Below the pieces are notes generated by a model, which saw only the letters and a program-made list of their open reading frames with translations, had not been told where the DNA came from and ran no database searches. Shown piece after piece: positions 6,425 to 6,665 of a stretch of DNA of 64,000 bases (its first letter is position 1; every line of letters starts with the position of its first letter). The translations under genes were made by a program, and so were the position numbers. Source of the stretch: an uncultured Gammaproteobacteria bacterium (lineage in GTDB: Bacteria > Patescibacteriota > Patescibacteriia > Magasanikbacterales > GWA2-37-8); contig CAYOXC010000002.1 of assembly GCA_964407865.1 (NCBI GenBank), forward strand, positions 38,978 to 102,977, in the 5' to 3' direction.

Positions 6425-6592
6425 ATGCAAACTATTGCATTGCTGGTGGACTGACGGGGATTCGGCCTCGGCTTTCACTCGCTTCCGCTCGTTCGGCCTG
6501 GCCACCGTCTCGCGGTTTGGCTCACCAGTAAGTTCGCCAAACATCGCTCCGACGTTCTCATCCCCAGGCAATGCAAACTATTGCATTGCTGG
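6425..6592. repeat. Third copy of the 92-bp core (6465-6556), bracketed by a 40-bp duplication of the tRNA-Ala 3' end plus flank
   Basis: ATGCAAACTATTGCATTGCTGGTGGACnGACGGGGATTCG occurs at 6425-6464 and at 6571-6610. The core differs by one base from the Pro-locus copies. Confidence 0.85.
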
Positions 6593-6665
6593 TGGACCGA
6601 CGGGGATTCGAACCCCGGACCTCCGCCTTGCAAAGGCGGCGCTCTACCAGCTAAGCTATCGGCCC
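6593..6665 (-). tRNA. tRNA-Ala (UGC)
   Basis: Acceptor GGGCCGA with a G3:U70 pair, anticodon loop UUUGCAA, T-loop TTCGAAT. Confidence 0.85.

Follow-up and report, generated by a model that had tools for sequence, protein, structure and literature searches.

The question raised by this locus is why one short core should stand behind two different tRNA genes, each time joined to the same point of the T-loop. The window (the whole stretch of DNA analysed, 64,000 nucleotides of contig CAYOXC010000002.1, assembly GCA_964407865.1) carries this core once behind tRNA-Ala(UGC) and twice behind tRNA-Pro(UGG). It was found that the core is the middle part of a larger folded unit, and that this unit belongs to a widespread family of small, GC-rich elements (about 125-190 nt) without protein, each of which ends in a copy of the 3' end of the tRNA that it follows. 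The favoured explanation, which we give about an even chance of being right, is that the feature is a member of a family of non-autonomous mobile elements that enter a tRNA gene by way of a carried tRNA-like segment. A host-useful RNA of the tRNA operon is a serious alternative. The family could not be found in the sources searched (Rfam, phage and plasmid collections, literature) and it is filed here among small non-autonomous tRNA-gene-associated elements, or structured RNA motifs.

The element behind tRNA-Ala

The tRNA-Ala(UGC) gene (6590-6665, minus strand) is intact, encodes its CCA and was called with 72 bits. Read on the strand of the tRNA, the element follows directly downstream in the order hairpin P0, two unpaired nucleotides, guide strand, core, tRNA tail copy and partial P0. 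P0 (6568-6589, minus) has 22 nt and is predicted to fold as GCAAUGCAA-UAGU-UUGCAUUGC. The guide GGGGAUGAG (6557-6565, minus), the 5' strand of a helix named P1, is complementary to nt 56-64 of tRNA-Ala. The 92-nt core (6465-6556, minus) consists of the junction nucleotides AAC, a hairpin P2, GG(U) and a hairpin P3 with a C-GGAA-G apex. It is followed by the second direct repeat, DR2 (6444-6464, minus; CGAAUCCCCGUCAGUCCACCA), which copies nt 56-76 of the tRNA with one mismatch and supplies both the 3' strand of P1 and a single-stranded, acceptor-type tail; the first repeat, DR1 (6590-6610), is the corresponding part of the gene itself. After it comes a partial second P0 copy (6424-6443, minus; 20 of 22 nt), a pattern also seen at locus L013, whose repeat stops within the P0 loop. 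As P1, the closing helix, is formed by GGGGAUGAG and the beginning of the tail copy, the functional unit is wider than the 92-nt core.

A preliminary description of this DNA had pointed out a near-identical third core beside tRNA-Ala, lying between two 40-bp repeats and joined to the tRNA sequence inside the T-loop (GGTT|CGAATCC). Each of these observations was confirmed. The Ala core is identical to both Pro cores at 91 of 92 positions, with the single difference at position 6474, and an exact 83-nt stretch occurs three times in the window (5921-6003, 6087-6169 and 6475-6557), compared with 0 occurrences in 100 shuffles. The junction lies between tRNA nt 55 and 56 (GGTT|C) in both the Ala and the Pro elements. 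The direct repeats measure 41 nt rather than 40 (6424-6464 and 6570-6610), with one mismatch at 6452/6598. Their composition had to be revised. The tRNA part, given as 18 nt, comprises 21 nt from C56 to the encoded CCA, and the supposed 22 nt of 3' flank is not native flank: the remaining 20 nt correspond to most of the element's own P0 hairpin (6568-6589). P0 is counted as part of the element, since the orthologous loci L115 and L116 and other family members conserve it through compensatory changes. What had been described as a 40-bp duplication of the tRNA end plus its flank is really the tRNA end plus part of a second P0 copy.

The tRNA-Pro array and its operon

Behind the same operon's tRNA-Pro(UGG) gene (6224-6298, minus), whose segment 6224-6242 (nt 56 to the last base called by ARAGORN) forms the first repeat copy, two units of 166 nt stand in tandem. 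Unit 1 (6058-6223, minus) comprises a linker (6202-6223), P0 (6180-6201), the guide CAGGAUUUG (6169-6177), the core (6077-6168) and the tRNA tail copy (6058-6076). In unit 2 (5892-6057, minus) the same parts occupy 6036-6057, 6014-6035, 6003-6011, 5911-6002 and 5892-5910. Both units are identical, and Tandem Repeats Finder (TRF) reported a repeat at 5892-6242 with a period of 166, 2.1 copies and 100% identity. The Pro guide CAGGAUUUG pairs with CAAGUCCUG and differs from the Ala guide, so that this strand changes with the tRNA. Slippage or unequal exchange between the flanking repeats can be enough to yield such perfect 2.1-copy arrays, and precise loss could follow from the same process. No element was found behind tRNA-Phe(GAA) (6335-6407, minus), which lies between the two occupied genes.

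A promoter-like site of the sigma-70 type (6703-6730, minus; TTGACT, 16-nt spacer, TG, TATAAT; 11 of 12 consensus matches) is located just upstream of tRNA-Ala. An intrinsic terminator (5858-5885, minus) closes the operon and is the sole minus-strand terminator-like site in 5700-6900. The scan revealed no other minus-strand promoter- or terminator-like site between the operon promoter (6730-6703) and this terminator (5885-5858). All three units are therefore predicted to lie within the primary transcript of the tRNA operon, since the promoter precedes tRNA-Ala and the only terminator comes after the last Pro unit. Directly past the operon terminator, a perfect consensus promoter (TTGACA, 17-nt spacer, TATAAT) was seen at 5809-5837 (minus); it presumably serves an open reading frame (ORF) of 104 amino acids at 5461-5775, which has no Pfam match.

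Family members and boundaries

The family was searched for with an exact 22-mer from P3 against metagenome contigs and with a 20-mer against GTDB genomes. In total, 15 distinct copies (family 1) were obtained. They came from metagenomes and from metagenome-assembled genomes (MAGs) of Patescibacteria, which are ultra-small bacteria, and seven kinds of tRNA preceded them (Pro, Ala, Leu, Asp, Glu, Ser and Lys). The tRNAs at the metagenome and GTDB loci were Leu-GAG, Asp-GUC (three times), Glu-UUC, Ser-GCU, Ser-CGA, Lys-CUU and Pro-CGG. GTDB matches to the 20-mer with the same layout came from genomes labelled Patescibacteria or Magasanikiibacteriota. A few further matches fell in bins whose labels read Nanoarchaeia or Gammaproteobacteria; as bacterial terminators and genes (recG, for example) are present in these bins, the labels were treated with caution. 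A covariance model of the family (R1) gave 96-137 bits for the members and at most 34 bits for everything else.

All copies are located behind tRNA genes, and an intact tRNA with its own 3' end was present upstream of every element. The junction was tRNA 55|56 in every copy (56|57 in L010), followed by a copy of the same tRNA's own 3' end. The order of parts was P0, a guide antisense to nt 56-64, reaching as far as nt 72 in some copies, the two-hairpin core and a copy of tRNA nt 56-73/76. Between the repeats lie 105-175 nt, and the GC content of the elements is 59-73%, against 39% for the genome. Where the repeats end at the tRNA end they measure 19-21 nt. In four loci they run into unique flank, namely L003 (30 nt), L005 (at least 35 nt), L083 (25 nt) and L013 (about 70 nt, including the terminator). 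Repeat identity that extends into non-functional flank in this way indicates a recent duplication. In many loci an intrinsic terminator stands between tRNA and element. At L013:5535-5565 (minus), the tail copy is split by a 19-nt hairpin, CCCGCCCAAGGCGGGCAGG, within the 3' strand of the T-stem; the rest of the roughly 70-nt repeat, including the terminator and half of P0, is identical.

The check on whether the core forms part of an annotated RNA gene gave no Rfam match for it. With the Rfam 15 covariance models, only tRNAs were found, both at positions 5000-7500 of the window at E<=10 and in 10 loci at the gathering threshold. BLAST against phage and plasmid collections gave nothing meaningful for the element, two pattern scans of viral contigs gave 0 matches, and no description of this family was found in the literature searched. 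A 20-mer from the P2 loop had no match in the GTDB scan, which suggests that this loop is lineage-specific.

The 20-mer GAACGAGCGGAAGCGAGTGA was also found as the subterminal block of an abundant, GC-rich repeat of ~150 nt in Acidobacteriota/Vicinamibacterales MAGs (most of L011-L106). This repeat has dozens of copies per genome, the ends CTAcAAGCTGTCTCAT...ATGAGACTAG and tandem arrays with a ~100-bp period (for example L019:3540-3720, L024:2560-3390 and L043:4500-5160). The same 20-mer occurs in three Treponema MAG loci (L078, L084 and L105). In the Acidobacteriota repeats that share it, model R1 matches only a hairpin block of 20-37 nt. The likeness may reflect either shared ancestry or convergence on a (CGAG)n hairpin with tandem G.A pairs.

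A conserved fold

The predicted fold is a three-way junction of helix P1, in which the guide pairs with the tail copy, and the hairpins P2 and P3, with z-scores from -2.9 to -4.9. This fold brings the two ends of the unit together at the junction, where the 3' end of P3 lies next to nt 56 of the tail segment. When the proposed structure was laid on the 15 distinct sequences, 84.5% of the cells could pair, compared with 72% in shuffles and 23-38% in slid controls. Changes on both sides were observed at 21 of 35 pairs, 5 of the 9 pairs of P1 among them, and the observed covariation score was reached by 0 of 500 shuffles. The alignment of the 15 sequences was fitted to the covariance model, which favours the tested structure somewhat; a plain MAFFT alignment also shows covariation of P1, P2 and the P3 apex. 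A covariation-supported fold across divergent sequences, as is required of a conserved structured RNA, was thus found.

The invariant positions are the junction AA(A/C), an internal loop GGA/GA, the GG after P2 and the apex C-GGAA-G, a GNRA tetraloop. In most members the 7-bp helix below the GGAA loop reads GAACGAG/CGAGUGA, with three Watson-Crick pairs and two tandem G.A. In L116-Ala it is AAAUUUU/AAAAUUU, which is rich in AU and consists entirely of Watson-Crick pairs; L118 has GAGUCGG/CCGACGA. A 25-nt block, CCGAACGAGCGGAAGCGAGUGAGAG, considered as a universal motif, was rejected on the grounds that orthologues put other 7-bp helices under the loop; the block is a structural hairpin and not a fixed site. 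The P0 stem is likewise kept by compensatory changes (GCGAGC, GCAAGC, GCGGCC, GCAATGC and GCGACGC), with the loops CUGC, CAGU or UAGU. Orthologues of the Ala P0, GCAATGCAACAGTTTGCATTGC in L115 and GCGACGCAATGGTTTGCGTCGC in L116, retain the stem in this way.

The guide was found to track the target tRNA in each of the seven tRNA types. Together with the following AAC it is antisense to tRNA nt 53-64, a segment that spans the junction point of the uninterrupted tRNA. In 5 of 15 minimum-free-energy folds the guide pairs with the real tRNA 3' end instead of with the copy. Within the helices, 70 cells are G.A or A.G, which would be pyrimidine-pyrimidine clashes on the opposite strand, and G.U was counted nine times versus five for A.C, a ratio that only weakly favours one strand. 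Because of these G.A/A.G cells and the excess of G.U over A.C, the sequences point to the tRNA-sense strand as the one that would fold.

Two other interpretations of the unit were considered and discarded, and one further helix is not claimed. A coding reading would begin at GGAGCGAUG; L003 and L007 lack its ATG, and the stem changes are compensatory. A hammerhead-like reading, based on CUGGUGAG or CUGACGAG, failed since the motif is unconserved, lies in the wrong position and has no Rfam match. When the Pro linker (GAGGCGA) was paired by hand with the tail of the copy, 6 of 7 pairs formed in three orthologues; the resulting acceptor-like helix showed no clean covariation and has no counterpart in the Ala elements.

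Orthologous loci and probable homogenisation of the cores

A neighbouring DUF5671 protein marked the host as a Magasanikbacteria-like Patescibacterium and was used to locate syntenic loci, at which the occupancy of the two sites was compared. Taking the protein of the window as 100%, one Ala and two Pro units are present there; L116 (70% identity) has one of each, L115 (70%) one Ala unit and an empty Pro site, and L118 (68%) an empty Ala site and one Pro unit. Both sites are empty in L112 (73%) and L119 (63%). The empty sites that had been called for as a check thus exist: in L118, tRNA-Ala is followed after 6 nt by tRNA-Phe, and L119, the Pro site of L115 and L112 are empty as well.

The P0 and guide of the window's Ala element match those of L115 and L116, and the Pro linker (GAACGMAGUGAGRAGAGRCGAA) and P0 match L116 and L118. 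Since these parts are orthologous across genomes with 68-70% DUF5671 identity, both sites are old residences, occupied before the lineages of the window, L115, L116 and L118 split. The cores behave differently. Identity between the Ala and Pro cores is 99% in the window and 66% between the corresponding cores of L116, and the window cores are 69-76% identical to their orthologues. Given the old occupancy and this low orthologous identity, the 99% likeness is best read, and most simply, as recent gene conversion or core replacement in this genome and not as two insertions. The earlier idea that one core had recently targeted two tRNAs here is accordingly given up: orthologous P0, guide and linker sequences date both occupations long ago, and the likeness of the cores would reflect recent homogenisation.

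In L118 the T-stem of tRNA-Pro has changed (CACG/CGUG), and the tail copy retains the older CCUG pairing with the guide. This argues that P1 is kept for its own sake and is not continually recopied from the tRNA. Over six orthologous copies, the acceptor-type unpaired tail has changed at ~2/60 positions, while the cores have diverged by ~25%.

Further rearrangements were noticed at the tRNAs of the syntenic loci. At L112:3000-3210 (minus), an insert of ~150 nt interrupts the anticodon arm of a tRNA-Pro pseudogene and holds an intact, different tRNA-Pro(UGG). At L112:3353-3470 (minus), the 5' end of tRNA-Phe directly adjoins three tandem units of ~33 nt (GCCGGGGTTTACTCGGCGTAGCATAGCGAAAGAA), and the unit begins like that tRNA's own 5' end (GCCGAGG...). 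At L118:1205-1295 (minus), a 5' fragment of tRNA-Pro with a GC-rich hairpin of ~30 nt in its D-loop lies just upstream of the intact tRNA-Pro.

Stacked units and a second family in the window

The same layout was found with other cores: three further, unrelated ones join at tRNA nt 57 or 59. One of them is present in the window behind tRNA-Ser(UGA) (12752-12839, plus), where two identical units of 165 nt follow the gene (12840-13169, plus; TRF 12824-13169, 100% identical, 2.1 copies). Each unit ends with ATCCCACCCCTTCCGC, that is, the tRNA-Ser sequence from T-loop nt 59 to the last base called by ARAGORN; copies lie at 12824-12839, 12989-13004 and 13154-13169, and the junction is 58|59 of the T-loop. 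The closing helix, GGAAUGCGUGGUGAU/AUCCCACCCCUUCC, also covers the acceptor strand (z -4.7), and the interior is a four-way junction with a GCGAAGC hairpin. This core gave no alignment with family 1 and no R1 match.

The two remaining cores are stacked directly behind a family-1 unit. At L010:5368-5538 (plus) a different unit of ~150 nt stands in this position behind tRNA-Ser-GCU, and at L008:575-698 (minus) another one of ~110 nt behind tRNA-Asp-GUC. A separate guide, a separate copy of the tail of the same tRNA and a separate terminator belong to each stacked unit. The short motifs GGAGCGA, CCGCGAG and GAACGAGCGG occur both in the second core of L010 and in family 1. Cores that are 94% identical were found behind tRNA-Pro in L013 and tRNA-Lys in L083, in differently named MAGs. 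At ~3186-3216 of L083 a relic holds only the last core bases and a decayed tail copy; it is the one possible truncated copy, and a filter-free scan with the model at full sensitivity found no others.

How the units may have reached the tRNA genes

The constant T-loop joint, the tail copies of each unit's own tRNA, the empty sites and the stacking of unrelated cores fit a site-specific insertion process that reads tRNA sequence or structure. In this respect the preliminary description, which had argued for such a process rather than chance, holds with regard to the fixed T-loop link in 15 of 15 copies, the empty sites and the stacked cores; an integrase, reverse transcription or another mechanism may lie behind it. 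Chance or purely local segmental duplication without a defined element is next to impossible, as tandem duplication via short repeats can yield 2.1-copy arrays and yet would hardly give one covarying architecture behind seven tRNA types in many genomes, or a core with 0 matches in shuffles.

We infer that the units are mobile and propose the following course. The element would enter by exchange or copying across the segment that it has in common with the gene, from nt 56 onward, which would leave the tRNA gene intact and push the tail copy behind the element. The left boundary would be fixed where the common sequence ends, and the right boundary would vary with how much flank is common or duplicated. 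Tandem and stacked arrays would also be explained, the newest unit presumably being nearest to the tRNA. Once resident, a unit would be transcribed with the tRNA operon and inherited vertically, and its direct repeats would allow it to be lost or doubled. A second copy in the genome could overwrite its core, as would have happened here to give Ala and Pro cores that are 99% identical. A folded single-stranded intermediate is suggested by the conservation of the fold, and an RNA form would be available because the unit is predicted to be transcribed with the tRNAs. RNA seems somewhat the likelier of the two, ahead of single-stranded DNA. The recombination step would depend on an enzyme supplied in trans. 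T-arms have five to six of the nine P1 pairs in common, so few guide changes would be needed for a new tRNA.

A more specific proposal, which we regard as rather unlikely, goes further. The units would be a new class of guide-directed mobile RNA or single-stranded DNA, in which the antisense strand of 9-17 nt selects an individual tRNA gene at its T-loop and 3' half, and the folded core recruits or catalyses the joining to nt 56. They would then be a bacterial, protein-less counterpart of SINEs (short interspersed nuclear elements) or of guide-RNA-directed transposons, possibly moving via a circle of ~150-190 nt whose ends meet at the three-way junction.

Several observations weigh against mobility. 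No recombinase, transposase or reverse transcriptase was linked to any copy in the 4-64 kb of readable sequence per genome used for neighbour-gene checks, and the neighbours are housekeeping genes. Among the 30 window ORFs scanned, the only recombinase, 36 kb away, is XerC/D-like (42210-43052, plus; 280 amino acids); it is followed by a SpoU methylase gene and looks like a housekeeping Xer. No insertion was caught between near-identical strains: Logan short-read assemblies of the same or related strains (L107-L111, L113, L114 and L117) end exactly at the repeats, the same-strain contigs stopping there. The mobile reading gives no account of how a guide would be fitted to a further tRNA, and the G.U count favours the folded strand only weakly. 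No inverted half-site of the tyrosine-recombinase kind can be recognised from the sequence at the 3' end of the core beside the junction; to the left of the junction, GAGGC, GUGAC or GAAGC ends helix P3 and bears no likeness to the 5' strand of the T-stem. Finally, elements persist at the same site across genomes with 68-70% neighbour-protein identity, and this persistence, the compensatory evolution and the conserved tail are no less in keeping with an RNA that serves the host than with a selfish one. As a separate observation on the window, a gene for a 2H phosphoesterase ('Swiss Army Knife' RNA-repair-type domain) lies at 37260-37901 (minus).

A host-useful non-coding RNA of the operon is clearly less probable than mobility and the strongest of the competing explanations. 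On this view tRNA processing would set the unit free as a spacer or trailer RNA. Its tail mimic and its guide would influence how tRNAs mature, how stable they are or how their quality is controlled, and it would have spread by duplication and loss of tRNA genes; we take it to be comparable in principle to the E. coli 3'ETS-leuZ (external transcribed spacer) sponge. Predicted co-transcription with the tRNAs agrees with such a role, as do the GC content of 59-73% in a 39% GC genome, the retention of the Ala and Pro sites in distant relatives with compensatory changes, the slow change of the acceptor-type tail (~2/60 positions versus ~25% core divergence) and the ability of the guide to pair with the real tRNA 3' end (5 of 15 folds). 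The element is dispensable, however, as four of six syntenic genomes have no element at one or both sites, and in many loci an intrinsic terminator parts the tRNA from the element. Unrelated cores of the same architecture stacked behind a single tRNA, perfect tandem duplicates and repeats that extend into non-functional flank are also difficult to reconcile with it.

The two remaining alternatives are concrete versions of mobility. In the first, considered unlikely, a miniature integrative element would be moved in trans by a tyrosine integrase of the T-loop class, or by XerCD- or IntI-type recombination of folded single-stranded DNA, the hairpins being DNA structures. Repeats from the T-loop to the tRNA end, gene restoration and tandem accretion are reportedly the classic footprint of integrase-borne islands (Williams 2002). 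All three were seen here: every copy has tRNA-3'-end repeats beside an intact gene, as elements of the T-loop class do, and the window does hold a tyrosine recombinase gene (42210-43052). Hairpins of the GCGAAGC type and sheared G.A pairs, both of which recur in the units, are stable in single-stranded DNA too. Against this version, the proposed search for an integrase neighbour gave none in or beside any copy examined, with housekeeping genes on the flanks, and no internal integrase gene or conserved ORF was present between the repeats. Only 105-175 nt lie between the repeats, no T-stem-like inverted half-site can be recognised from the sequence beside the junction, and the window's Xer (280 amino acids, with the SpoU methylase gene after it) looks like a housekeeping protein. 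A junction of several helices whose connecting nucleotides do not vary is also more typical of RNA.

In the second version, which is less probable still, a SINE-like retro-element is envisaged: a processed trailer RNA, from linker to tail copy, would anneal through its tRNA-like 3' tail to the tRNA gene and be copied by target-primed reverse transcription, with a first nick in the T-loop and a second at a variable position, so that the length of the target duplication would vary. This would account for a fixed left and a variable right boundary (19 to about 70 nt), for the conserved, RNA-like fold, for the reliance on the host tRNA promoter and for the L083 relic, which looks as a 5'-truncated copy would. 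No reverse transcriptase was found among the 30 window ORFs scanned, and no reverse transcriptase or endonuclease partner for the family. The relic is moreover the single candidate truncation even in the full-sensitivity scan, and the partial P0 after the tail copy, in the window's Ala element and in L013, is a 3' addition and not a 5' truncation.

Significance and comparison with known systems

tRNA genes are classic landing pads for mobile DNA. To our knowledge, the known users of these sites are kilobase-sized elements that carry their own integrase. The family described here uses the same landing pad with ~150 nt, no gene and a conserved fold that includes a target-antisense strand. If mobile, it would offer a minimal system for how a tRNA gene is recognised and re-sealed, and for whether this happens via base pairing. 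If it is a host RNA, it would be a new mimic of a tRNA tail, produced from a tRNA operon in organisms with very reduced RNA-processing machinery. In practical terms, the elements break short-read assemblies at tRNA operons, and in annotation they can be mistaken for tRNA fragments or prophage attachment sites.

Three known classes were compared and set aside. A miniature inverted-repeat transposable element (MITE) does not apply: what forms the inverted repeat here is the guide together with the duplicated target, the duplication varies in length from 19 to about 70 nt, and copies occur only behind tRNAs. A tRNA intron (group I or archaeal bulge-helix-bulge) or split tRNA is contradicted by the complete tRNA upstream of every element, and a retron-like non-coding RNA by the lack of an adjacent reverse transcriptase.

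The closest likeness in footprint is to T-loop tyrosine-integrase islands and CIMEs (cis-mobilizable elements), which also show tRNA-3'-end repeats starting in the T-loop, an intact gene, pile-up and variable occupancy. The family differs in having only 105-175 nt between repeats, neither integrase nor ORF and a size ~100 times smaller, and in its conserved multi-helix fold, its tRNA-antisense strand and its predicted position within the tRNA transcript. The tRNA-related SINEs of eukaryotes are likewise short and non-coding, with a tRNA-like part, enzymes in trans and a variable target duplication. The present family is bacterial, has no poly(A) or tail matching a LINE (long interspersed nuclear element), and carries only the 3' third of the adjacent tRNA, the gene into which it would insert.

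RNA-guided elements, i.e. group II introns with their EBS-IBS (exon- and intron-binding site) pairing, the bridge and seek RNAs of IS110/IS1111, the omega RNAs of TnpB/IscB and type V-K CRISPR-associated transposons (CAST) that home on tRNA genes, share with the family a short strand complementary to the target about the point of insertion, which varies with the target. The family has no protein gene and no Rfam match, and its guide pairs in cis with the duplicated target. In tRNA mimics (tmRNA, YrlA Y-RNA-like, mascRNA and viral tRNA-like structures) and in 3'ETS-leuZ, an acceptor/T-arm-like helix, a tRNA-type 3' tail and release from a precursor are comparable features. The mimic of the family is instead an exact copy of the neighbouring tRNA, without a significant cmscan match; a 92-nt insert stands in place of the T-loop, and a 5' acceptor strand is missing from most copies. 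Integron attC sites and the attP of CTX phage differ by their IntI/integron context, which the family does not have, and by the tRNA-gene target and the multi-helix junction with a GNRA loop that distinguish the family. What they have in common with it are imperfect hairpins of ~100-150 nt, in which conservation concerns the structure and not the sequence, and a stem reproduces the target duplex.

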